Assembly (NCBI GenBank): GCA_964479005.1
Contig: CAYZJA010000002.1
Location: forward strand, 96,001-160,000
Source of the DNA: an uncultured Candidatus Saccharibacteria bacterium
GTDB taxonomy: Bacteria > Patescibacteriota > Minisyncoccia > UBA6257
Length of the DNA: 64,000 bases
Direction of reading: 5' to 3'
The notes under the pieces are model-generated. The model was not told where the DNA came from, did not search any database, and was given only the letters and a program-made list of their open reading frames with translations. This document shows, piece after piece, positions 34,596 through 45,350 of the stretch; within the stretch, counting starts at the first letter, position 1; every line of letters starts with the position of its first letter. Both the position numbers and the translations under genes were made by a program.

Positions 34596-35963
34596 ATGGC
34601 AAATGATTTAATGGAAAAAATTATATCTTTGTGTAAAAGGCGTGGTTTTGTTTATCCCTCTTCTGAGATTTATGGAGGGTTTGCTAATATCTATGATTTT
34701 GGACCATTAGGTTCGCTTTTAGCTAAAAATATTCGGGATGTCTGGATTAAAAAGATGGTTCAAGAGCGAAACGATATGTATTTAATTGATGGCTCGATTT
34801 TAATGCATCCAAAGGCATGGGAAGCCAGTGGGCATACTGCTGCCTTTACCGATCCTTTAATACAATGCCCATCGTGTAAAAAAAGATTTCGAGCAGATAC
34901 ATTAGAAGGCTGGAAACTAGAAAAAGATAATCAAACAGGAAAATGGAATGTTTTGAATCAAGGGAGTTTAATTTGCCCAGATTGTAATGGGGATTTAATT
35001 CCAGATGTTAAAGAATTCAATCTTTTAATGACAACAAGCGTAGGTTCAATTGAAGGGGAAAAGACGGAAGTATATCTTAAGGGTGAATCGTGCCAGAATA
35101 TTTATCTTGATTTTTTGCCAATAAGGGATACGATGGGAGCAAAAATTCCATTTGGTGTTGCGCAAGTTGGTAAAGCTTTTCGTAATGAAATTACATTAGG
35201 TAAATTTCTCTTTAAGGTGAGAGAATTTGAGCAAATGGATATTGAATATTTTTGTTCGCCAGAAGAAGCTAAAAGATTATATGAGGAATGGAAAGATATT
35301 AGATTTAACTGGTATGTTGATACAATTGGCTTAAGTAAAAATAGGCTTCGTTGGAGGCAGCATTTTTCTGAAGAAAGAATTTTTTATGCCAGAGATGCAT
35401 GGGATATTGAGTACAAATTCTTTGATGAGTTTGAGGAATTAGAAGGAATTCATGATCGTTCTGATTATGATTTAAAACAACAAGGAAAGTTTTCTGGAAA
35501 AGCGCTTGATTATTTTGATCCAATAAGCAAAACAAGATTTACTCCAAACATTATTGAATGTTCTGGTGGCCTTCAAAGGACTTTTTTGGCTATTTTAGCA
35601 GAGAGCTATCAAGAAGAGAAAGTAAAAGATGAAAAAAGAGTGTTTTTGAAAATTAAACCGAGCCTTTCTCCATATAAGGTGGCTGTTTTTCCTTTAGTTG
35701 CAAATAAAGATAATTTAACTGAGAAAGCTAAAGATGTCTTTAATCTTTTAAAACCTGAATTTATGACAATGTGGGATAGCATTGGTAATATAGGAAAGAG
35801 ATATCGACGTCAGGATGAGATCGGAACACCTTGGTGTATAACAGTGGATTACCCAACATTAGAAGATAATACTGTTACAATTCGTGATAGGGACACAATG
35901 AAACAACAAAGAATTAAAATCGAAGAAATTATTGGATGGATAAAAGAACAATTAAATGTATAA
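34596..35963 (+). CDS. glyQS: Glycyl-tRNA synthetase, dimeric archaeal/eukaryote-type
   Basis: Begins with the conserved RRGFVYPSSEIYGGFANIYDFGPLG. Class II motifs and an embedded zinc-binding insertion. 455 aa. Confidence 0.9.
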   Translation: MANDLMEKIISLCKRRGFVYPSSEIYGGFANIYDFGPLGSLLAKNIRDVWIKKMVQERNDMYLIDGSILMHPKAWEASGHTAAFTDPLIQCPSCKKRFRADTLEGWKLEKDNQTGKWNVLNQGSLICPDCNGDLIPDVKEFNLLMTTSVGSIEGEKTEVYLKGESCQNIYLDFLPIRDTMGAKIPFGVAQVGKAFRNEITLGKFLFKVREFEQMDIEYFCSPEEAKRLYEEWKDIRFNWYVDTIGLSKNRLRWRQHFSEERIFYARDAWDIEYKFFDEFEELEGIHDRSDYDLKQQGKFSGKALDYFDPISKTRFTPNIIECSGGLQRTFLAILAESYQEEKVKDEKRVFLKIKPSLSPYKVAVFPLVANKDNLTEKAKDVFNLLKPEFMTMWDSIGNIGKRYRRQDEIGTPWCITVDYPTLEDNTVTIRDRDTMKQQRIKIEEIIGWIKEQLNV

Positions 35964-37227
35964 ATTTAAACTTACAAAGCTAAATAACGGCTTAAGGATT
36001 CTTACTGTTCCTTCAAAAGAATCCTTTTCTTTTAAAGTGGCAGTTTTAGTTAATACTGGCGCTGATTTTGAAACTAAAAAAAACAATGGAATTTCTCATT
36101 TTTTAGAACACTTATGCTTTAAAGGGACTAAGAAACGTCCTTCTAATTTTGCAATTACCCAGGAATTAGATAACATTGGTGGATCTTATAGCGCTTTTAC
36201 AAGTGAAGAGTGTATGGGTTATTATGCTTTGGTATCTCAACAAAAAAAGGATTTGGCTTTAGATATTGTTTCTGATATTTATTTAAATTCCCAATTTCCA
36301 CAAAGAGAAATAAAAAAAGAAAAAGGGGTGATTATTGAAGAAGTTAATACGTACAAAGATAATCCTCAAAGTTATATTTGGGATCTTTGGGAAAGATTGT
36401 TATATGGCCATCAGGCAGTTGGGCGTTCTATCTTAGGAACAAAAACAAATATTAAAAACTTTAAAAGGGATGATTTGTTGAAATATTATGAATCTCAGTA
36501 TAAAGCAAAGTCTACTTTAGTAGTAGTAAGTGGAAACTTTAATGAGAAGGAGATTATTAGTAAAGTAAAAGATTGTTTTCGTGATATTAGATTGGGTAAA
36601 GGCAAGACTAAAGAATTAGTAAAAGAAAAACAAAATAAACCGCAAGTATTTATAAAAAACAAAAAAACAGATCAGACTCATTTAATTTTAGGATTTAGAG
36701 GCATAAATCTATTTGACAAAAGACGATATGCTTTGAACGTATTAAATGCTATTTTTGATGGAGGTATGTCCAGCATTCTTTTTCAGACTATTAGAGAAAA
36801 ATTAGGCGTAGCTTATGATATCAATAGCAACCTTTCTTATTCTACTGATCATGGTTTTTGGGCAGTGGCAACAGGCATAGACAATAACCGCCTAGAAGAA
36901 GTGATTATTTCTGTTTTAGAAGAATGGAAGAAGTTTAAAAGAAAACCGGTTGAGATTAAAGATATTAAAAAAGCTAAAAGCTATATTACTGGTAAACTTG
37001 CATTAGGCCTAGAAAATGTTCATAATGTAGCTAGTAGTTTTGCTCTTCTAGAATTATTAAAGCAAAAAATAGAAACGCCAGATCAATATTTAAAAAAGAT
37101 TAGACAAGTTACTGCGCGCGATATTCAGAAAGTGGCAGAAGATTTATTACAACCTCAGTCTCTAAATTTAACTTTAATTGGTCCTCACAAAAATAAACAG
37201 AAATTACAAAAATTGCTTCATGTTTAA
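35956..37227 (+). CDS. M16-family (pitrilysin-like) zinc peptidase
   Basis: Inverted zinc motif HFLEH (HxxEH) near the N-terminus. 423 aa. Confidence 0.75.
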   Translation: MYKFKLTKLNNGLRILTVPSKESFSFKVAVLVNTGADFETKKNNGISHFLEHLCFKGTKKRPSNFAITQELDNIGGSYSAFTSEECMGYYALVSQQKKDLALDIVSDIYLNSQFPQREIKKEKGVIIEEVNTYKDNPQSYIWDLWERLLYGHQAVGRSILGTKTNIKNFKRDDLLKYYESQYKAKSTLVVVSGNFNEKEIISKVKDCFRDIRLGKGKTKELVKEKQNKPQVFIKNKKTDQTHLILGFRGINLFDKRRYALNVLNAIFDGGMSSILFQTIREKLGVAYDINSNLSYSTDHGFWAVATGIDNNRLEEVIISVLEEWKKFKRKPVEIKDIKKAKSYITGKLALGLENVHNVASSFALLELLKQKIETPDQYLKKIRQVTARDIQKVAEDLLQPQSLNLTLIGPHKNKQKLQKLLHV

Positions 37228-38269
37228 AACAGCTCAAAATATAGATATTTCCTGGCAGAGCATTTTACGGCTTTATGTTATTTTATTGGTTTTTATCGCA
37301 GCTTGGTACTTTAGGCAGGCTATTTTTATTATTTTACTTGGTTTTATTGTAGCTTCGCTTTTGGATAGGCCAATAGATTATTTTGAAGAGAAGTGGAAAA
37401 ATCGTTGGCTGGCAACTTTTATCATTTATTTTATCTTTTTAAGTGTATTAGGATTGATTGCTTATTTATTTATTCCAGTTTTTAATAATTATATAGTTGG
37501 GTTTTTAGATTTTTTCCCATCATGGATGAATAAAGGAGCCTTTCTTCAACTATGGCAAGGATGGCAATCTGTAGAATTTCCAATGCAAAATTGGCTAAGT
37601 TTGTTAGGTATTTCCCAGGGACAATTATCAGAATTTTTGCTTCAGTCTGGTAATTTGCTCACCAAGATTTTGGGAGGAGCTTTTTCTGCTTTTTTTGTTC
37701 TTCTTTTGTCTTTTTTTATTAATACAGAAAAAAAAGGAATAGAAAAAGCAATTCGTTTGATTTTTCCAAGCGCTTATGAAGATTACGCGGTTTATCTTTG
37801 GGGAAAAACACGCCGTAAAGTTGGAAGTTGGTTTTTTAGCCAATTAATTCTTAGTTGTATAGTTGGGAGCTTGGTTTTTATTAGCCTAAAAATGTTAGGA
37901 GTTCCTCAAGCTGAATTTTTAGCAATATTAGCTGCTCTATTTGATTTTATTCCATATGTAGGCCCTTTAATTATTGGTTTTGTAGCATTCTTAGTTGGAA
38001 TAAGTCAAAGTTTATTCCTGGGAATTTCAATACTAATTATTTTTATTATCATTCAGGCCATTGAAGGTTTTATCGGCCCATTATTGCGGGCTAAAACAAT
38101 GAAATTAAATCCATTGGTAATTATTTTAGCTGTTTTAATTGGTGGAAAATTAGCTGGAGTTGCCGGGATTATTATTGCTTTACCATTAGCAGCAGCCGCA
38201 ATTGGGTTGATTAGGGATATCCAAACAGGTCGCATCACTGCTTATTTACCACAGAAACAGCTTTTATAA
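37178..38269 (+). CDS. AI-2E family transporter (PerM-like permease)
   Basis: Eight-TM protein with the FDFIPYVGPLIIGFVAFLVG motif. The true start may be the internal Met (MFKTAQ, around 37217). Confidence 0.75.
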   Translation: MVLTKINRNYKNCFMFKTAQNIDISWQSILRLYVILLVFIAAWYFRQAIFIILLGFIVASLLDRPIDYFEEKWKNRWLATFIIYFIFLSVLGLIAYLFIPVFNNYIVGFLDFFPSWMNKGAFLQLWQGWQSVEFPMQNWLSLLGISQGQLSEFLLQSGNLLTKILGGAFSAFFVLLLSFFINTEKKGIEKAIRLIFPSAYEDYAVYLWGKTRRKVGSWFFSQLILSCIVGSLVFISLKMLGVPQAEFLAILAALFDFIPYVGPLIIGFVAFLVGISQSLFLGISILIIFIIIQAIEGFIGPLLRAKTMKLNPLVIILAVLIGGKLAGVAGIIIALPLAAAAIGLIRDIQTGRITAYLPQKQLL

Positions 38270-38286
38270 AATAGCCCCATCTGAAT

Positions 38287-39279
38287 ATGGTGAACATTTT
38301 AATTTCCAAAATTGATTTAAAAAATCTATATTTAGATAAAAAATTAACTACTTATGATATAGCTAAATTTTATAATTGTTCTCAGGGAACAATATGGAAA
38401 AGATTAAAAAGATTTAATATAAAAACGAGATTTTCTTGGAATGAGGTCAACCTTTCTAAGAAAAAACTGAGGGATTTATATACTAAAGATAAATTATCTA
38501 CTTGGCAGATAGAAAAGATTTTGAAAATACCTAGGAGTACAATTTATAGAAAACTTATAGATTATAATATTCCTGTAAGAAATCTGGCGCAGTCTCATAT
38601 TATTTATCCACGAAAGAATTTTAATGGAAACAAAACAGAAAAGGCTTATCTTATGGGTTTTGCAATTGGGGATTTAAGAGTAAGAAAAATATATAAAAAT
38701 AGTGAAACAATTCACATTGATTGTGGCTCTACTAAGAAAGAACAGATAAAACTTATATCAGATTTATTTAAACCTTATGGAAGGGTTTGGATTAGTAAAC
38801 CCAATAGGATAAAAGCTGTTCAAATAGAGTGTTCTGTCAATAATTCTTTCGGTTTTTTGCTAGAAAAGAAGAAATTTTTAGATAACTGGATTTTAGCTAA
38901 CAAAAGATATTTCTTTTCTTTCTTAGCAGGTTTTACTGATGCTGAAGGATGTATTTCAGTAACGTCAAAAGGACAAGCTTTCTATTCTTTAGGAAATTAT
39001 AATGATACACTCTTAAAACAAATAAGGGATAGACTCATTCGATGGGGAATAGAGGTGCCGAAACTTACTAGAAGCCGGACACATTTAGGGTATATTACTA
39101 AAGAGGGCTATACGATTAATCATATTTATTGGATACTGCACATTAATAGAAAACAATTCCTTCTGTTATTATTTGATTTAATGGGCCCGCATCTTAAGCA
39201 TTTTGCAAAAATTCAGGGGTTATTAAAGGCTCAAAAAAATATAGAAGAAAGAAATAAAAAAATTTTTAATTTAAAATGA
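38287..39279 (+). CDS. Free-standing double-motif LAGLIDADG homing-endonuclease-like protein with two N-terminal HTH repeats
   Basis: Motifs YLMGFAIGDL and FLAGFTDAEGCISV about 90 aa apart. Residues 8-100 form a tandem duplication (LTTYDIAKFYNCSQGTIWKRLKRFNI / LSTWQIEKILKIPRSTIYRKLIDYNI) that looks like HTH modules. Confidence 0.6.
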   Translation: MVNILISKIDLKNLYLDKKLTTYDIAKFYNCSQGTIWKRLKRFNIKTRFSWNEVNLSKKKLRDLYTKDKLSTWQIEKILKIPRSTIYRKLIDYNIPVRNLAQSHIIYPRKNFNGNKTEKAYLMGFAIGDLRVRKIYKNSETIHIDCGSTKKEQIKLISDLFKPYGRVWISKPNRIKAVQIECSVNNSFGFLLEKKKFLDNWILANKRYFFSFLAGFTDAEGCISVTSKGQAFYSLGNYNDTLLKQIRDRLIRWGIEVPKLTRSRTHLGYITKEGYTINHIYWILHINRKQFLLLLFDLMGPHLKHFAKIQGLLKAQKNIEERNKKIFNLK

Positions 39280-39316
39280 AACATAAATAAATATAATTTT
39301 CAAAAATAAACTTTTT

Positions 39317-40801
39317 ATGTCTAAACATTGCATTTATATTTCTACTGCTATTGATTATCCTTCTAACAAGCCTCATCTTGGGCATGCTTTAGAAAAAATT
39401 CAAGCCGATGCTTTAGCGCGTTATTTTAGGTTCCAGGAGAAAGAAGTGTATTTTAGTACTGGGACTGATGAACACGGGCTTAAAATTCAAAAATGTGCAG
39501 AGAAAGCAGAAAAAACGCCTCAACAATTTGTTGATGAAATGGTTAGTTATTTTAAGAATCTTGATAAGGTTTTAGATATTTCTTACGATGATTTTATTAG
39601 AACGTCTGAGTCACGGCATATAAAAGTAGTAGAAGAGATAATTAAGAAAATCTATCAAAAAGGCGATATCTACAAAGGCAGATACAAAGGTTTGTATTGT
39701 ATGGAATGCGAAACTTATTATTTGCCAAAAGACATTCCAGAAGGGAAATGCCCTGTTCATCATTTGATGTTAGAGCAGGTTGAAGAAGAAACATATTTTT
39801 TCAAAATGGGCAAATATAAGGAGGAAATATTTAAACATATTCAAGAGAAATCTAATTTTATTATGCCTGAAAACAGAAAGAAGGAAATTCTGAATCGCCT
39901 TTCTGAACCTATTCAGGATTTAAGTATTTCTCGTAAAAATGTTAAATGGGGTATTCCTTTACCTTGGGACAAAGAGTTCACTTTGTTCGTTTGGGTAGAC
40001 GCTTTGATTAATTATTTATCTACTCTAGATTATTCGAAAGAAAGGTTTAAAAAATTTTGGTCGGATCAAAACGAAGTCTACCATATAATCGGGAAAGATA
40101 TTATTTGGCATCATAGTGTTATTTGGAGCAGTTTATTGCTTTCAGCTGGCTTACCTCTGCCTAAAACTATTTTTGTTCATGGTTTCATTACTGTTGAAGG
40201 AGAAAAAATGTCAAAATCATTGGGAAATATTATTAATCCTGTAGAGTTAGTTGAAAAATATGGCGCTGATGTAGTGCGTTATTTCCTTCTTCGAGAGTTT
40301 TCTCCTTTTGAAGATGGTGATTTTTCTGAACAAAGATTAAAGGAGCGTTATAATTCTGATTTGGCACAAGGCTTAGGTAATTTAGTTTCACGCGTCTTGG
40401 CTTTAGGAGAGCAATATGGGAAACAGATAATGGTTCAATGTTTGGATTCCGATTTGATTACTAAGTCTTGGAGCGATTATAAAAAGCAGATGGAAGCGTT
40501 TCGTTTTAATGATGCTTTAGCAACTACTTGGAATTTAATTTCTTATTGCGATAAATATATCAGTGATACGAAACCGTGGGAAAAAATTAGTGATGAAAAA
40601 GAATTTCAGAAAATCTTAGGCGCATTAGTATATATATTAGGTAATATTTCTTTAATGCTTTCTCCGGCAATGCCTAAAACATCTGAAAAGATACTCGAAT
40701 TTCTTAAATTACAAGGTAGATCAAAACAAGATTGGTTGTCACAAAAGGTTTTACTTGAAAAACAACCACCTTTGTTCCCAAAAAAGGAATCACGAAGTTA
40801 A
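39317..40801 (+). CDS. metG: Methionyl-tRNA synthetase
   Basis: HLGHALEK HIGH-type motif, KMSKSLGN, and a zinc knuckle CMECETYY...CPVH. 494 aa. Confidence 0.9.
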   Translation: MSKHCIYISTAIDYPSNKPHLGHALEKIQADALARYFRFQEKEVYFSTGTDEHGLKIQKCAEKAEKTPQQFVDEMVSYFKNLDKVLDISYDDFIRTSESRHIKVVEEIIKKIYQKGDIYKGRYKGLYCMECETYYLPKDIPEGKCPVHHLMLEQVEEETYFFKMGKYKEEIFKHIQEKSNFIMPENRKKEILNRLSEPIQDLSISRKNVKWGIPLPWDKEFTLFVWVDALINYLSTLDYSKERFKKFWSDQNEVYHIIGKDIIWHHSVIWSSLLLSAGLPLPKTIFVHGFITVEGEKMSKSLGNIINPVELVEKYGADVVRYFLLREFSPFEDGDFSEQRLKERYNSDLAQGLGNLVSRVLALGEQYGKQIMVQCLDSDLITKSWSDYKKQMEAFRFNDALATTWNLISYCDKYISDTKPWEKISDEKEFQKILGALVYILGNISLMLSPAMPKTSEKILEFLKLQGRSKQDWLSQKVLLEKQPPLFPKKESRS

Positions 40802-40803
40802 TT

Positions 40804-41655
40804 ATGTTTTTTGACTCTCATACACATTTAAATTTAGTTGCTTTTGACAAAGATAGAGAAGAAATAATAAGAAAAACCCTGGAACAGGGTATTTTTGTAA
40901 TTAATATAGGAACTTGCTATGAAACTTCTAAAAAAGCAATAGAAATTGCTCAACAATATGAAAATTGTTGGGCTACAGTAGGGTTACATCCTAGCCATAC
41001 AATACCAATGAAAATTGATAAAAGTGAATTAAAGATAAGTAGCAAGGAGGATGTATCAGAAGCAGAAGTTTTTAATGAAAAATTTGAATCACTTTTAAAA
41101 GAAGCCTTCAACTTTGCTCAGGGCAGGCCCAAAGTAGTAGCTATTGGTGAGTGCGGATTGGATTATAGTTATTTGAAAGATTTTTCTGGAAAGGATCAAA
41201 TAAAGTATGCAAAGATGGAAGAGGAAGAGTTTAGAAAACAAATTCAAGCTGCCAAAAAATATAATTTACCTTTGTCTCTACATATACGTGATTTATATGA
41301 AAAAGCCTTAATAATTTTGGAAGAAGAAAGATATAAGGGCGAGGCAGTATTCCATTTCTTTACTGGTAAAGTGAATCAGGCGCAAAAGATTTTAAAAAAA
41401 GGATTTTATTTAGGTTTTTCAGGTATCATTACATATTCAGAAATAATGAATGATGTTATTAAAAACGCACCGCTTGAGAAGATATTAATTGAAACAGACG
41501 CTCCTTACGTAGCACCAGTTCCTTATAGAAGCAATAGAAACGAGCCAATCTATGTAAAGGAAGTAGCTAAAAAAATTGCCCAGATAAAAAAACTTCCTCT
41601 AAAAAAGATAGAGGAAGCTACATTTAAAAACACTTTGCGACTTTTTGGAATATAA
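40804..41655 (+). CDS. tatD: TatD-family metal-dependent hydrolase/DNase
   Basis: MFFDSHTHLN start, GECGLDY and ETDAPY motifs. Confidence 0.85.
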   Translation: MFFDSHTHLNLVAFDKDREEIIRKTLEQGIFVINIGTCYETSKKAIEIAQQYENCWATVGLHPSHTIPMKIDKSELKISSKEDVSEAEVFNEKFESLLKEAFNFAQGRPKVVAIGECGLDYSYLKDFSGKDQIKYAKMEEEEFRKQIQAAKKYNLPLSLHIRDLYEKALIILEEERYKGEAVFHFFTGKVNQAQKILKKGFYLGFSGIITYSEIMNDVIKNAPLEKILIETDAPYVAPVPYRSNRNEPIYVKEVAKKIAQIKKLPLKKIEEATFKNTLRLFGI

Positions 41656-41786
41656 TTTCAAAGGCCCGGAAATATTATTTCATTGTTTAACAATTAGCAA
41701 ATAGTAAGGCGAGAAGAGGTTGTTGAAAAAAACTATAGCGATTAGCGTGTTTTTGAAATAACCTCTTCTCGCCTTCTTACTATCAT

Positions 41787-43490
41787 CTAGACTTCAATGA
41801 CAACTGGCAATACCATTGGGCGGCGCTGTGTTTTTTTAAACAGGAATAAACCTATCTCATTTCTTAAATTATTGCGGATATAACCTTCATTGAATGTATC
41901 TCCTTTTGTTGAACGGCTTACAATTTCCCTCACTAATTTTTTCGTTTGATTTATCAATTCTTTTGATTCTTTCATATAAACAAATCCTTGAGAAATAATT
42001 TCGGGATTATTATAAAGTAGTCCTGTTTTTCTATCCACCAAAGCAATGATGATAAAAATTCCATCCTTGGAAAGGGTTTGTCTTGCTCGAAGAACCACTT
42101 CTTTAATATCCCCCACACCTAATCCGTCAACCATTATATAGTTTGTAGGAACAAATTTTTCTGTTGCTGTTATTTTATTTTTAGTTAATTCAATTATTTG
42201 GCCGTTTGCTCCTGTTACAATATTTTGTTTGCCGATACCCAAGGATTCTGCTATTTCACTATGGAGTTTTAACATAGAAAAATGGCCGTGAATAGGCATA
42301 AAGAAATGTGGCTTGGTGAGATTAATCATCATCTTTGAATCATCTTGATAGCCATGCCCAGAAGAATGAATATCAACCATTTTATAGTGGTAGATATTAG
42401 CGCCTTGTTTTGCCAGATTGTCTTTTAGGTTTTGAACAGCCAATTCGTTTCCCGGAACAACAGAGGAAGAGAAAATAACGGTATCTCCTTTTTGTATCCT
42501 TAAATATTTATGTTCTCTATTCACTATTCTCATTAAAGTGGCTTCACTTTCACCTTGCGCGCCAGTACATAGTATTGTTAGCTTTTGCGGGTCAAGCCGA
42601 CTTGCTTCTTTCCAGTTGATTATAGTTCCTTTTTTAACACTTATGTATTTTAGTTTTTCCGCAATAGCTAAATTAGTTTTCATAGCATAACCTTGAATAA
42701 CAATTTTGCGATTATATTTTTCTGATAGCCAAATAGCTTGCTGAAGCCTGTTGATTAATGAAGCAAATGTGGCTAGTATGATTCTTCCTTTTGTTTGCGC
42801 AAAAAGAGTGTCTAAATTATCCATTATTGTTTTTTCAGAAACAGAATGTCCTGGATTTTCTATTCCAGTTGAGTCGGACATTAGAAGTTGTACGCCTTGG
42901 GAAGCAAGTGTGGCAATCCGTGATAAATCTGCTGGTTTATCACCAATTGGTTGGAAATCAAATTTAAAATCGGTTGCATACATAATTAATCCATGCGGTG
43001 TATTAATGGCTAATCCCAAAGTATCAGGTATGTTGTGGTTTAAATGGAATGGGGAAATTTTAAAAGGGCCTAATGTTGTGGATTTATTTGGGTTTATATC
43101 TTCAATATTCAATTTTTTTAGGCTAGGAAAATCTTCCTGCCTTTTTAAAATTATTCCACGGGTTAAAGGCGGGGCATAAATAGTGGGATAATTTAATTTA
43201 TTAATTAGATAAGGTATGGCTCCAATGTGGTCATAGTGGGCATGAGTGATAAAAACCCCTAATATTTTTTTCTCTGGATGGCTTGTTAAGTATTCAATGT
43301 TAGGAATAATAAAATCAATGCCCGGCATATCTTCATCAGGAAACTGTAGCCCCATATCTACAATCAGGACCTGATTCTCGTATTCAAAAAGAGTCATATT
43401 GCGGCCAATTTCTTCCAATCCTCCCAAAGGAATAATTTTTAATGGGGTTGTGGACGTTTTTGTTTTTTTATAAAATTTTTTACGTTCCAT
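41787..43490 (-). CDS. rnj: Ribonuclease J
   Basis: MBL motif HAHYDHIGAIPYL, beta-CASP and C-terminal domains. Start placed at the MERKKF Met, whereas the ORF track extends to 43547. Confidence 0.85.
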   Translation of the reverse strand: MERKKFYKKTKTSTTPLKIIPLGGLEEIGRNMTLFEYENQVLIVDMGLQFPDEDMPGIDFIIPNIEYLTSHPEKKILGVFITHAHYDHIGAIPYLINKLNYPTIYAPPLTRGIILKRQEDFPSLKKLNIEDINPNKSTTLGPFKISPFHLNHNIPDTLGLAINTPHGLIMYATDFKFDFQPIGDKPADLSRIATLASQGVQLLMSDSTGIENPGHSVSEKTIMDNLDTLFAQTKGRIILATFASLINRLQQAIWLSEKYNRKIVIQGYAMKTNLAIAEKLKYISVKKGTIINWKEASRLDPQKLTILCTGAQGESEATLMRIVNREHKYLRIQKGDTVIFSSSVVPGNELAVQNLKDNLAKQGANIYHYKMVDIHSSGHGYQDDSKMMINLTKPHFFMPIHGHFSMLKLHSEIAESLGIGKQNIVTGANGQIIELTKNKITATEKFVPTNYIMVDGLGVGDIKEVVLRARQTLSKDGIFIIIALVDRKTGLLYNNPEIISQGFVYMKESKELINQTKKLVREIVSRSTKGDTFNEGYIRNNLRNEIGLFLFKKTQRRPMVLPVVIEV

Positions 43491-43577
43491 ATTTTTTATT
43501 TTACCCCCACACCATAACGAGCACTGAGTGCTTCGCACCAAATACAAAGTATGTGCTCATTTGGTGTGGGGGTTTAG

Positions 43578-43663
43578 TGCCGCGGGTGGGATTTGAACCC
43601 ACATCCCGAGATTTCGGGACACGGTTCTGAACCGTGCGCGTCTGCCAATTTCGCCACCGCGGC
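43578..43663 (-). tRNA. tRNA-Leu (anticodon CAG), type II
   Basis: Reverse complement folds as acceptor GCCGCGG/CCGCGGC, anticodon stem CACGG/CCGTG with loop TTCAGAA, long variable arm, discriminator A. Confidence 0.8.
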
Positions 43664-43667
43664 AAAT

Positions 43668-45350
43668 TTATTTATTTATTATTGTACGTTTAGTGTATAT
43701 ATACCAATTCTCAATATCAGCGAATTTTTCTGATGGCAGATTGGCATATTGAATATGATAACCTTTTATTTTTTGCGGAAGGATATAGAGATAAAAGGGA
43801 TTATAAAGAAAAAGGGCAGGTTTATCTTCAAAAAGTATACTTTGAATTGTTTTTAAGTCATTTGTTCGTTGTTCTTCATTAAAAGTTTGTCTCGTTTTTT
43901 CTAAAAGTTCGTCTAAGTCCTTATTTTGATAGGCAGAAAGGTTAAGACCTGGATCAGTTATTTGTGAAGAGTGCCAAAAAGAAAATAAATCAGGGTCTTG
44001 TCCTATAATTTCTCCAAAAAGCAGTGCGTCATAGGATCTAGTTTGAATAATTTCTTTTTCTAAAGTAGCCAATGGAAGAATTTGTAGTTCTACAGAAATT
44101 CCTATTTTTTCCCAGCAAGTTGCCAAATAATTAGCCACTCTGATTAATTCTAAATTATCAGGAAGTGAAAGAATAAAAGTTTTTTGGTCGGGCTCTAATT
44201 GTTCAATGATTTTTTTTGCGTTTTGTAGCGAATATTCTGGTGAGAAATTGAATTCTTCTTCTAAGAATCCGGGGGTAAAAGGACCTCCCAAAGGAAAAGC
44301 TTGTTCTTTTAATATTTCTGTCATTAATTCTTGTCGTGGTATTGCTAAATCTAGTGCCTGTCGAATTTCTTTTTGATCAAATAAAGAGTTTCTTAGATTT
44401 AAAAACACTGCATAATAACGGGGAAGGTACAAAGAAGCCATTTGGACGTTCTTTTTGCCTCCAAAGAAATCTACATCTTCGATTAAAACAGGAGAGAATC
44501 CGTCGATTTCTTTTTTTAATAATCCGCTCTTAGCTAAATCATAATTATCGTAAGAACGGAAGATTAATTTGGAAATATAAGGTTCTTTTTTAAAATAATT
44601 TTCATTAGCTACCAGAGAATAACTAATAATTTTTCCCAGTTTGTTTTTTTCTAAGCTGTCAAAAAGATATGGCCCTGTTCCAATTGGTTTAAGATTATAG
44701 TCCGCTGATAAAAAATTTCTTGATTCAATATTTTCCCAGATATGTTTTGGAATTATTTTTAAAGTAAGGTTTTGTAAGAATGGCTTATAAGGGTTTTTAA
44801 GATTAAAACGTATAACATGTGTCCCTAATTTTTCTACAATAACCCCTCCCCAATTTAATCTCAATGGGCTTCTTATGCTTGGATCTTGGATTGTCTCAAT
44901 TGTAAAAATTACATCATCTGCCGTGAAAGTCATTCCATCATGCCAAAAAACATTGTCCTTAAGGAATATGATATAGGTCTTGCCATCTTTACTAACTTCT
45001 GTTTTTTCTGCTAAATTAGTGATTAATTTTCCTTGTCCATCAATAGAATATAAGCCGTCATAAATTAATTCTATCAAGTCCTTATCATAGTCGTTGGATT
45101 GAGCTAAAACAGGGTTAATATAAGATGGGCGGCCAATGATGCCTAAATGTAAGACCCCTCCTTTTTCTGGTTCAAGTGTTGTAAATCTGCAAATAAAATT
45201 AAAAATTAGAAGAAAAATGCCGGCAAGCAGAAAGCATAAAAATAAAAAACCGAGAGTTTTCTTTTTTAATGGTAATTTTAACCACTTTTTAAATAAGGAG
45301 TACCTCGTTTCTCCCTTCGCTCGAAATAAAGAACTAAAAATGGTTTTCAT
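43668..45350 (-). CDS. ABC transporter substrate-binding protein, family 5 (oligopeptide/nickel-type), membrane-anchored
   Basis: 560 aa, N-terminal TM, overall family 5 SBP architecture. No adjacent permease. Confidence 0.65.
   Translation of the reverse strand: MKTIFSSLFRAKGETRYSLFKKWLKLPLKKKTLGFLFLCFLLAGIFLLIFNFICRFTTLEPEKGGVLHLGIIGRPSYINPVLAQSNDYDKDLIELIYDGLYSIDGQGKLITNLAEKTEVSKDGKTYIIFLKDNVFWHDGMTFTADDVIFTIETIQDPSIRSPLRLNWGGVIVEKLGTHVIRFNLKNPYKPFLQNLTLKIIPKHIWENIESRNFLSADYNLKPIGTGPYLFDSLEKNKLGKIISYSLVANENYFKKEPYISKLIFRSYDNYDLAKSGLLKKEIDGFSPVLIEDVDFFGGKKNVQMASLYLPRYYAVFLNLRNSLFDQKEIRQALDLAIPRQELMTEILKEQAFPLGGPFTPGFLEEEFNFSPEYSLQNAKKIIEQLEPDQKTFILSLPDNLELIRVANYLATCWEKIGISVELQILPLATLEKEIIQTRSYDALLFGEIIGQDPDLFSFWHSSQITDPGLNLSAYQNKDLDELLEKTRQTFNEEQRTNDLKTIQSILFEDKPALFLYNPFYLYILPQKIKGYHIQYANLPSEKFADIENWYIYTKRTIINK

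Follow-up and report, generated by a model that had tools for sequence, protein, structure and literature searches.

LAGLIDADG endonucleases cut DNA site-specifically, at targets of about 20 bp, and leave 4-nucleotide (nt) 3′ overhangs. I-DmoI, the endonuclease domain of PI-PfuI, I-AniI and I-OnuI have two LAGLIDADG helices per chain, a β-sheet surface for DNA and acidic residues at the ends of the motifs; they are borne by introns (group I or archaeal) or by inteins, and N-terminal helix-turn-helix (HTH) arrays are absent from them. HO (F-SceII) of yeast is a free-standing LAGLIDADG enzyme with a zinc finger that cuts at one chromosomal locus, is derived from an intein and has been domesticated for mating-type switching. 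WhiA, which is inherited vertically throughout the Gram-positive bacteria, combines a degenerate LAGLIDADG scaffold with a C-terminal HTH, and Kaiser et al. reportedly found in 2009 that it had lost the catalytic acidic residues. In T-even phages, the free-standing seg (GIY-YIG) and mob (HNH) endonucleases undergo 'intronless homing' (PMC2988022), with a cut that lies in an adjacent gene, hundreds to thousands of bp away from where they insert, and group-I-like rRNA insertions of the candidate phyla radiation (CPR, Patescibacteria) encode LAGLIDADG enzymes, e.g. I-ShaI, that are mostly single-domain homodimers (PMC11270868). In this study, we analysed a putative homing endonuclease gene (HEG) in a 64,000-nt stretch of DNA (hereafter the window; CAYZJA010000002.1 positions 96,001–160,000, forward strand, assembly GCA_964479005.1) from an uncultured Candidatus Saccharibacteria bacterium (GTDB Patescibacteriota; Minisyncoccia; UBA6257). 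The gene is an open reading frame (ORF) at 38287..39279 (+), with an ATG start and 330 codons followed by a stop, and it lies directly ahead of metG, which encodes methionyl-tRNA synthetase (MetRS). Quite probably, it belongs to a family of selfish, free-standing HEGs with endonuclease activity that is specialised on the 5′ end of metG in Patescibacteria and DPANN archaea. No description linking LAGLIDADG genes to metG or MetRS in CPR or DPANN was found in the open-access literature.

The HEG resembles the I-DmoI group in its two LAGLIDADG helices per chain, β-sheet surface and acidic motif ends, but differs in standing as a gene of its own ahead of a protein-coding one and in encoding two to four HTH modules. 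Its likeness to seg and mob lies in being a cassette between conserved genes that seems to have no promoter and presumably uses an upstream one, in the apparent co-conversion of the neighbouring gene, in its patchy occurrence among relatives and in an HTH region that matches phage HNH-endonuclease families. Unlike seg and mob, the HEG is of the LAGLIDADG type, occurs in cellular CPR and DPANN genomes with no matches on viral contigs, and has a single insertion point in bacteria and archaea alike, the start codon of one specific essential gene. With WhiA it has in common a two-domain LAGLIDADG scaffold plus HTH in a free-standing bacterial gene, whereas its HTH is N-terminal, its catalytic residues are retained and its distribution is patchy with signs of horizontal transfer. 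HO, too, is free-standing and couples LAGLIDADG to an extra DNA-binding domain, at a single locus, but it is eukaryotic and domesticated. Enzymes of the I-ShaI type have CPR hosts and belong to the same nuclease superfamily, and homing has been proposed as the driver of their spread (PMC11270868); the HEG differs from them in being double-domain and HTH-bearing and in lying outside introns at a protein-coding locus.

Comparison loci or contigs are denoted by L-numbers and homologous proteins by P-numbers. A word-indexed search recovered at least 358 homologues, 47–88% identical over their full length, from Patescibacteria/Parcubacteria and DPANN archaea, and 183 clusters at E ≤ 1e-30 came out when 1.84 billion cluster representatives were searched exhaustively. 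A pattern scan of 185,579 species genomes, one genome per species, found at least 51 loci, about half of them in CPR (Parcubacteria, Paceibacterota, Daviesbacteria, Woesebacteria, Chisholmbacteria, Jorgensenbacteria and Kaiserbacteria) and half in DPANN (Woese-, Pace-, Nano-, Aenigmat- and Micrarchaeota, Iainarchaeum and the complete genome AR20). A few host labels, such as Gammaproteobacteria, Acidoferrum and Hadesarchaea, are probably binning or naming errors. The window protein is present on nine contigs. Relatives were absent from the viral contigs searched, which leaves a phage vector unsupported.

In the closer subfamily, the address of the gene is metG. At all of the 67 family loci with metG, the start of metG lies −7 to +85 nt (median 21) past the HEG on the same strand, as measured from alignment ends; the gap from HEG stop to metG start in loci other than the window is −11 to +61 nt, with some ATGA-type overlaps. 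The upstream neighbour is variable (AI-2E, TP_methylase, hypothetical genes or archaeal MCM), and the link to metG persists where MetRS is only 24–27% identical to that of the window (L034, L043, L045 and L048). An earlier note on this DNA, made from its letters and ORF translations, had placed the HEG ahead of metG and missed that the tie is to metG specifically, in bacteria and archaea, and that part of metG appears to travel along. At the loci of five distant relatives (26–35% identity; L049, L053 and L056–58), no metG match was found, and in L049 and L056 a Pfam scan of neighbouring ORFs showed flanking genes unrelated to metG. The link to metG therefore holds for the closer subfamily only.

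Members of the family vary in the number of HTH modules, which ranges from two to four; one subset of about 440 amino acids (aa) has four (~440–470 aa, e.g. P0069, P0084 and P0061). The four-module forms come mainly from archaeal loci, with L079 and L091 in addition, and one relative, P0249 (821 aa), shows eight matched stretches. NCBI names one homologue 'LAGLIDADG family homing endonuclease'. In most loci, bacterial and archaeal members keep a C-terminal tail, GN(I/L)NM(N) (e.g. L065 3960–3999 and L009 6960–6996), and the DNA that encodes it, GGAAATATAAATATGAAT, is similar to the region around the start of metG, ATGAATAAAAAA; proteins of the window clade end differently (FNLK*). The conserved tail may preserve a piece of the original target or may signal translational coupling. 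An apparent HEG–MetRS fusion ORF in L091 was rejected as an artefact of ORF extension, since a stop codon is present, and L055 was rejected as a HEG 'remnant', being cut by the contig end only.

The point of insertion can be read from loci that lack the gene. When the window MetRS was used as a probe in metagenome contigs, the neighbourhood AI-2E/metG/TatD/RNase J was recovered in close relatives with the HEG (L059, L062/63, L065 and L008) and without it (L069/70, L073–75, L083/84, L086 and L088–90). In the HEG-less locus L068, the spacer AATAGCCGCCAGTTTAT is followed directly by the metG ATG (empty site AATAGCCGCCAGTTTAT/ATGAATAAAAAAGTTTTTTTT...), and in L065 the same spacer precedes the HEG ATG, with metG 1 nt past the HEG stop. 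A second lineage has a different leader, TGATAAAAT - AAAAGGAGG-N5-CCTCCTTTT - AAGATT, which stands directly before the metG ATG in the HEG-less loci L080 and L066 (in L071 as a variant) and directly before the HEG ATG in L076, L081, L082 and L092; close variants lie just upstream of the HEG in L009 and L077. Because the leader precedes the metG ATG where the HEG is missing and the HEG ATG where it is present, the insertion in both lineages falls where the leader of metG meets its start codon. The HEG presumably uses the metG leader and would be co-transcribed with metG.

The leader of the second lineage, about 40 nt long (L076 2941–2987), is also found upstream of the HEG in L047. It consists of an extended −10-like element (TGATAAAAT), a hairpin (AAAAGGAGG-N5-CCTCCTTTT) that pairs a Shine–Dalgarno-like GGAGG with its complement, AAGATT and the ATG. 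This leader may be a promoter and translational control element for metG in Parcubacteria, and in one lineage it may also act as a short left homology arm for transfer of the HEG.

Comparison of the window with its HEG-less relatives suggested that more than the HEG was acquired. Nucleotide identity is about 87% over some 3.3 kb from 35000 to 38265–38270, at the AI-2E stop; it is then absent or only 66–70% across the HEG position and the 5′ part of metG, and returns to 80–90% inside metG and on through TatD and RNase J. At the protein level, residues 1–280 of the window MetRS are 43% identical to those of the HEG-less relatives and residues 301–494 are 74–87% identical. Comparison with a distant Parcubacteria group (L066, L067, L071, L081 and others) gave the opposite result, 65–71% in the N-terminal and 47–52% in the C-terminal part. 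Sliding windows place the switch at about nt 40256–40351 (codons ~315–345), just past the KMSKS motif at residues 297–301. Given the reversed N/C identities and the nucleotide breakpoints, the window metG is a chimera of a foreign 5′ part and a native 3′ part, and the HEG plus about 1 kb of metG (38270 to ~40300) form one tract that is foreign relative to the sister genomes.

A similar picture was obtained for L076 and L009, in which the upstream genes are about 55% identical in nucleotide sequence, identity rises to 90–97% from about 40 bp before the HEG ATG through the HEG, stays at 94–99% in metG nt 110–310 and falls to background by about codon 340. Within the species cluster of the window, at least three very different 5′ metG alleles, named here by their N-terminal signatures DYPS/EKI, PIYYVND and AIPYVNA, are joined to one native 3′ part. 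As a separate observation, L061 (409–500) has a metG in which about 25 N-terminal codons of the PIYYVN type sit on a body 93–97% identical to the HEG-linked DYPS-type allele of L062; there is no HEG in the 409 nt upstream, and a second recombination junction thus lies very near the metG start.

The encoded protein is predicted to be a monomeric two-domain LAGLIDADG nuclease capable of cleavage. The earlier note had described two LAGLIDADG-type motifs about 90 residues apart, preceded by two tandem HTH-like repeats of about 45 residues, and it had proposed profile searches, structure prediction and an inspection of the acidic residues that end the motifs; each of these points held up. Motif 1 (LMGFAIGDL; residues 122–130, nt 38650–38676) and motif 2 (LAGFTDAEG; residues 213–221, nt 38923–38949) are 91 residues apart. 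In the profile search, Pfam LAGLIDADG_3 matches residues 211–262 with 27.5 bits (gathering score 22.5) and HTH_23 matches residues 14–44 with 29.4 bits (gathering score 24.6), with weaker HTH-type matches over residues 63–102. The first LAGLIDADG domain has no Pfam match of its own (LAGLIDADG_1 is sub-threshold at 15.6) and is shown by the fold. A UPF0175 match of 25.7 bits, below its threshold of 27.9, was dismissed as a spurious HTH-like hit. The HTH repeat is real: residues 5–48 align to residues 55–98 with a local score of 76, compared with 24 ± 4.5 (maximum 46) in 500 shuffles.

An AlphaFold2 model built on a 90-sequence alignment (mean pLDDT 89.5, pTM 0.73) contains two three-helix modules (residues 8–42 and 58–92) and then two helix/β-sheet units, opened by the LAGLIDADG helices 116–128 and 206–220 with β strands after each, that is, a double LAGLIDADG fold. 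In a Foldseek search of the PDB, the top 50 matches listed were all LAGLIDADG proteins; the best were PI-PfuI (9.5e-10) and I-DmoI (6e-8, target TM-score 0.63–0.66), followed by I-WcaI, I-AniI, I-OnuI and the bI3 maturase, with sequence identities to these structural matches of 14–22%. The family profile also matches PI-PfuI (3e-6) and I-AniI (1e-5) by sequence. The acidic residues are kept: D129 is invariant in 120 of 120 homologues, and position 220 is E in 117 and D in three. Also invariant in the 120 homologues are G124, F125, G128, L130, R133, Q153, G215, D218, A219, G221, N237 and K289.

The HTH region (residues 5–118) matches PHROG families of phage HNH endonucleases (6.5e-12, 5e-10 and 3.5e-9), and therefore it is a DNA-binding module of a kind that is attached to other homing nucleases too. 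The double-HTH region (profile positions 11–96) is also matched, at E 0.0013, by PDB 2lvs_A, a 105-residue 'putative uncharacterized protein' that may be a stand-alone version of this module.

Divergence at synonymous sites (dS) indicates that the HEG is younger at its loci than the genes around it. Between L076 and L009, dS is 0.24 for the HEG compared with 1.55 for MetRS, 2.4 for AI-2E and saturation for TatD; between L059 and L008, the HEG has 0.07 versus 0.29, and between the window and L008, 0.39 versus 0.63 and 0.51. The ratio of nonsynonymous to synonymous divergence (dN/dS) of the HEG is 0.12–0.18, similar to those of MetRS and TatD (the AI-2E ratio for the window and L008 was disregarded as a misalignment artefact). 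Partners have been exchanged as well, the HEGs of L048 and L023 being 75% identical and their MetRSs 32%. Stages of loss were found in several relatives. L064 and L065 are 99.9% identical on both sides of a clean deletion in L064 of 934 bp, from HEG codon 23 to the stop. In L060, about 38 HEG codons are left after a deletion apparently between the short direct repeats ATATGGAAA; L098 has lost about 140 internal HEG codons, and L039 and L042 are frameshifted. In L088–90, a footprint of the spacer and the first ~8 HEG codons stands ahead of a different metG allele. Taken together, invasion, co-conversion, decay and loss would be the expected marks of a homing life cycle, and those seen in the sequences are consistent with it.

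The earlier note had set beside a mobile HEG a second possibility, a domesticated protein, and had proposed to look for presence or absence of the gene at the same locus. If domesticated, the LAGLIDADG/HTH protein would be a WhiA-like regulator of the metG operon that binds DNA sequence-specifically, beneficial to the host and no longer a mobile nuclease. A regulator might well be co-oriented with metG, directly ahead of it and behind its leader, as the HEG always is; it might carry two to four HTH modules, evolve with a dN/dS equal to that of housekeeping neighbours and be given the label 'transcriptional regulator', as JGI does for some members. Yet D129 is invariant and E220 is replaced by D only, no Pfam WhiA domain was found in the HEG in a scan at E ≤ 1, and the gene is scattered over at least 51 species-level genomes. 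Moreover, HEG-less genomes have the same metG allele type and leader (L066, L067, L068, L071 and L080), L064 has deleted the HEG between almost identical flanks with its metG intact, and HEG dS lies far below that of the flanks. Domestication is thus very improbable in our view. Empty sites, the clean deletion, the mosaic metG and the low dS of the HEG favour the mobile reading of the earlier note, and locus polymorphism and dS disfavour the other.

The decayed copies raise the question of whether the copy in the window is an intact but stranded relic of a once-mobile family, fixed here, with no targets left and drifting towards loss. Deleted and frameshifted copies in relatives and a window-clade C-terminal tail that departs from the consensus GN(I/L)NM would be in keeping with this. 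However, the window protein keeps all invariant residues of the family, its dN/dS versus L008 and L059 is 0.16, and HEG-less alleles coexist in closely related populations, so that targets may remain. We regard a relic as highly unlikely.

Considering a selfish HEG family specialised on the metG 5′ end as the preferred explanation, we infer endonuclease activity, a cut position, a route of double-strand-break repair and co-transcription with metG, and propose the following course of events. The N-terminal HTH modules would extend the DNA contact of the monomeric LAGLIDADG enzyme, which would cut metG loci without the HEG at the metG 5′ end or close to it; the junction of leader and ATG, split by the insertion, is the most likely place, and the alternative is a site in the initial ~1 kb of a sensitive metG allele. 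Repair of the break from a HEG-carrying copy would install the HEG between the metG leader and the ATG and would co-convert up to ~1 kb of metG, with a crossover that tends to fall at about codon 300–345, just past KMSKS. The HEG would then form the first cistron of a HEG–metG operon, with its expression driven by the metG leader, and might later decay or be deleted. In the window lineage, the outcome would be the chimeric metG. A target at the junction is favoured because the insertion point is fixed and the first 200 nt of the DYPS-type coding sequence show no difference between alleles with and without the HEG, whereas a target inside the metG allele is favoured because the conversion tract is long and one-sided.

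The second of these targets corresponds to homing of the T4 seg/mob type, in which the enzyme would cut hundreds of bp inside sensitive metG alleles (e.g. PIYYVND and AIPYVNA), and the DYPS/EKI allele would be resistant and have to be co-converted; this differs from the preferred scheme in the placement of the cut only. It is a process documented in phage T4 (PMC2988022), and it would account for a tract that extends ~1 kb into metG with right ends recurring at codons 300–345, for the three very different 5′ alleles on one native 3′ part, and for DYPS-type alleles with and without the HEG being alike in their first 200 nt. On the other hand, in two lineages whose upstream sequences differ, the ORF stands exactly at the ATG of metG, as if insertion splits the target, and family members are linked to non-DYPS MetRSs too, including the most divergent ones mentioned above. 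Such a distant cut is, on balance, rather unlikely.

Several points weigh against a selfish, homing HEG with a target at metG. Purifying selection as on the housekeeping neighbours, together with the frequent overlap of HEG stop and metG start, would fit a benefit to the host as well. In metG of the HEG-linked allele type, the first 200 nt contain no position that separates alleles with the HEG from those without it, so that comparing alleles does not locate the cut. Exchanged tracts end abruptly on the left, often with no homology between donor and recipient further upstream, and the join on this side would have to rely on a short conserved leader or be illegitimate. Faster evolution of the anticodon-binding domain may explain part of the difference between the N- and C-terminal parts of MetRS in distant pairs, and over all pairs the HEG identity is weakly correlated with the identities of the MetRS halves (Spearman 0.33 and 0.37). 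For this reason, co-transfer is argued from the closer pairs and from the window lineage with its reversed N/C pattern. In closer pairs, HEG identity tracks the N-terminal and not the C-terminal part of MetRS (for L076 and L065, HEG 71%, N 79% and C 43%), and the identities of AI-2E and TatD to those of the window are 28% and 38% in L076 versus 82% and 80% in L065. Finally, all comparison sequences are metagenome assemblies; both allele classes recur in independent ones (L069/70, L073–75, L083/84 and L088–90).

Two findings are new here: in bacteria and archaea alike, the HEG is strictly associated with the start codon of metG, and part of an essential synthetase gene is apparently carried along with it. 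We tentatively suggest, at somewhat less than even confidence, that the HEG–metG pair may be a gene drive that crosses domains and acts on a gene essential for translation: it would repeatedly break metG, have the catalytic body of MetRS, to just past KMSKS, swapped for that of the donor during repair, build chimeras and spread one MetRS subtype among CPR bacteria and DPANN archaea of shared habitats. Rampant horizontal transfer and mosaicism of aminoacyl-tRNA synthetase genes are well known. If the scheme is general, homing endonucleases would offer a concrete mechanism behind both. A selfish nuclease would be tied to mosaic MetRS evolution and to gene sharing between bacteria and archaea, and synthetase transfer, a topic of long discussion, would become experimentally approachable. 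The family would also be a clear cellular case, neither phage nor organellar, of a free-standing LAGLIDADG HEG with a defined home site, and it would be further evidence that CPR and DPANN organisms exchange DNA. Meganuclease engineering may profit from the HTH-extended monomeric scaffold and its natural two- and four-module variants.

The features of the locus are listed in Table 1. The neighbours named in the earlier note were confirmed by Pfam, with an AI-2E transporter (37178..38269; 5e-51) upstream and metG (39317..40801; tRNA-synt_1g, 4e-106), full-length and uninterrupted, downstream. The HEG is free-standing, with its own start and stop, 17 nt past the AI-2E stop and 37 nt ahead of the metG ATG, and its position outside any intron or intein, as the note had claimed, was borne out: no intron, intein, riboswitch or T-box was found in the HEG region by Pfam or by an Rfam scan of 37000–44000. 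An RNA-maturase or intron context was rejected, as the Rfam scan showed no intron near metG. No HEG paralogue was found elsewhere in the 64-kb window. In a scan of 37000–41000, counts of promoters and terminators were not above those in shuffles, and a promoter-like site at 39270–39297 is at chance level. The G+C content over the HEG is 0.27–0.29 compared with 0.31–0.34 around it, a difference that was given no weight.

Table 1. The HEG–metG locus: coordinates of its features in the window
Feature	Position	Strand	Description or basis
Left spacer	38270..38286	+	17 nt, AI-2E stop to HEG ATG, AATAGCCCCATCTGAAT; left junction of the foreign tract
HEG, HTH-HTH-LAGLIDADG	38287..39279	+	ORF, Pfam, homologues, AlphaFold2, Foldseek, dN/dS
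HTH module 1	38308..38412	+	Residues 8–42; HTH_23; model helices 8–17, 22–28, 33–42
HTH module 2, repeat of module 1	38458..38562	+	Residues 58–92; helices 58–67, 72–79, 83–92
LAGLIDADG domain 1	38632..38901	+	Residues 116–205; predicted catalytic D129, codon 38671–38673
LAGLIDADG domain 2	38902..39276	+	Residues 206–330; predicted catalytic E220, codon 38944–38946
Right spacer	39280..39316	+	37 nt, HEG stop to metG ATG
metG 5′ two-thirds	39317..40300	+	Catalytic body to just past KMSKS; HEG-linked allele; right end approximate, 40256–40360
metG 3′ third	40301..40801	+	Anticodon-binding domain; native to the window lineage

Other elements were observed near the HEG in relatives and elsewhere in the window. 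In the archaeal contig L004 (JAZDFD010000024.1, 1622–5740), the MCM gene beside HEG–metG has two inteins, one of them with LAGLIDADG_3, so that two unrelated LAGLIDADG elements lie side by side. An RVT_1 fragment 5 kb upstream of the HEG on a Parcubacteria contig (L003 1–276) may belong to a group II intron or a retron. In the window, a long near-perfect inverted repeat (AGTAAGGCGAGAAGAGGTT ... AACCTCTTCTCGCCTTCTTACT) lies at 41700–41784 between the convergent TatD and RNase J genes; its sole Rfam match is a spurious sub-threshold miRNA. A 45-nt piece of it (41717–41761) is 97.8% identical to a segment of L061, located there between metG and TatD. Between RNase J and a SBP_bac_5-like gene, there is a tRNA gene at 43578–43663 (−) (Rfam, 57.9 bits).

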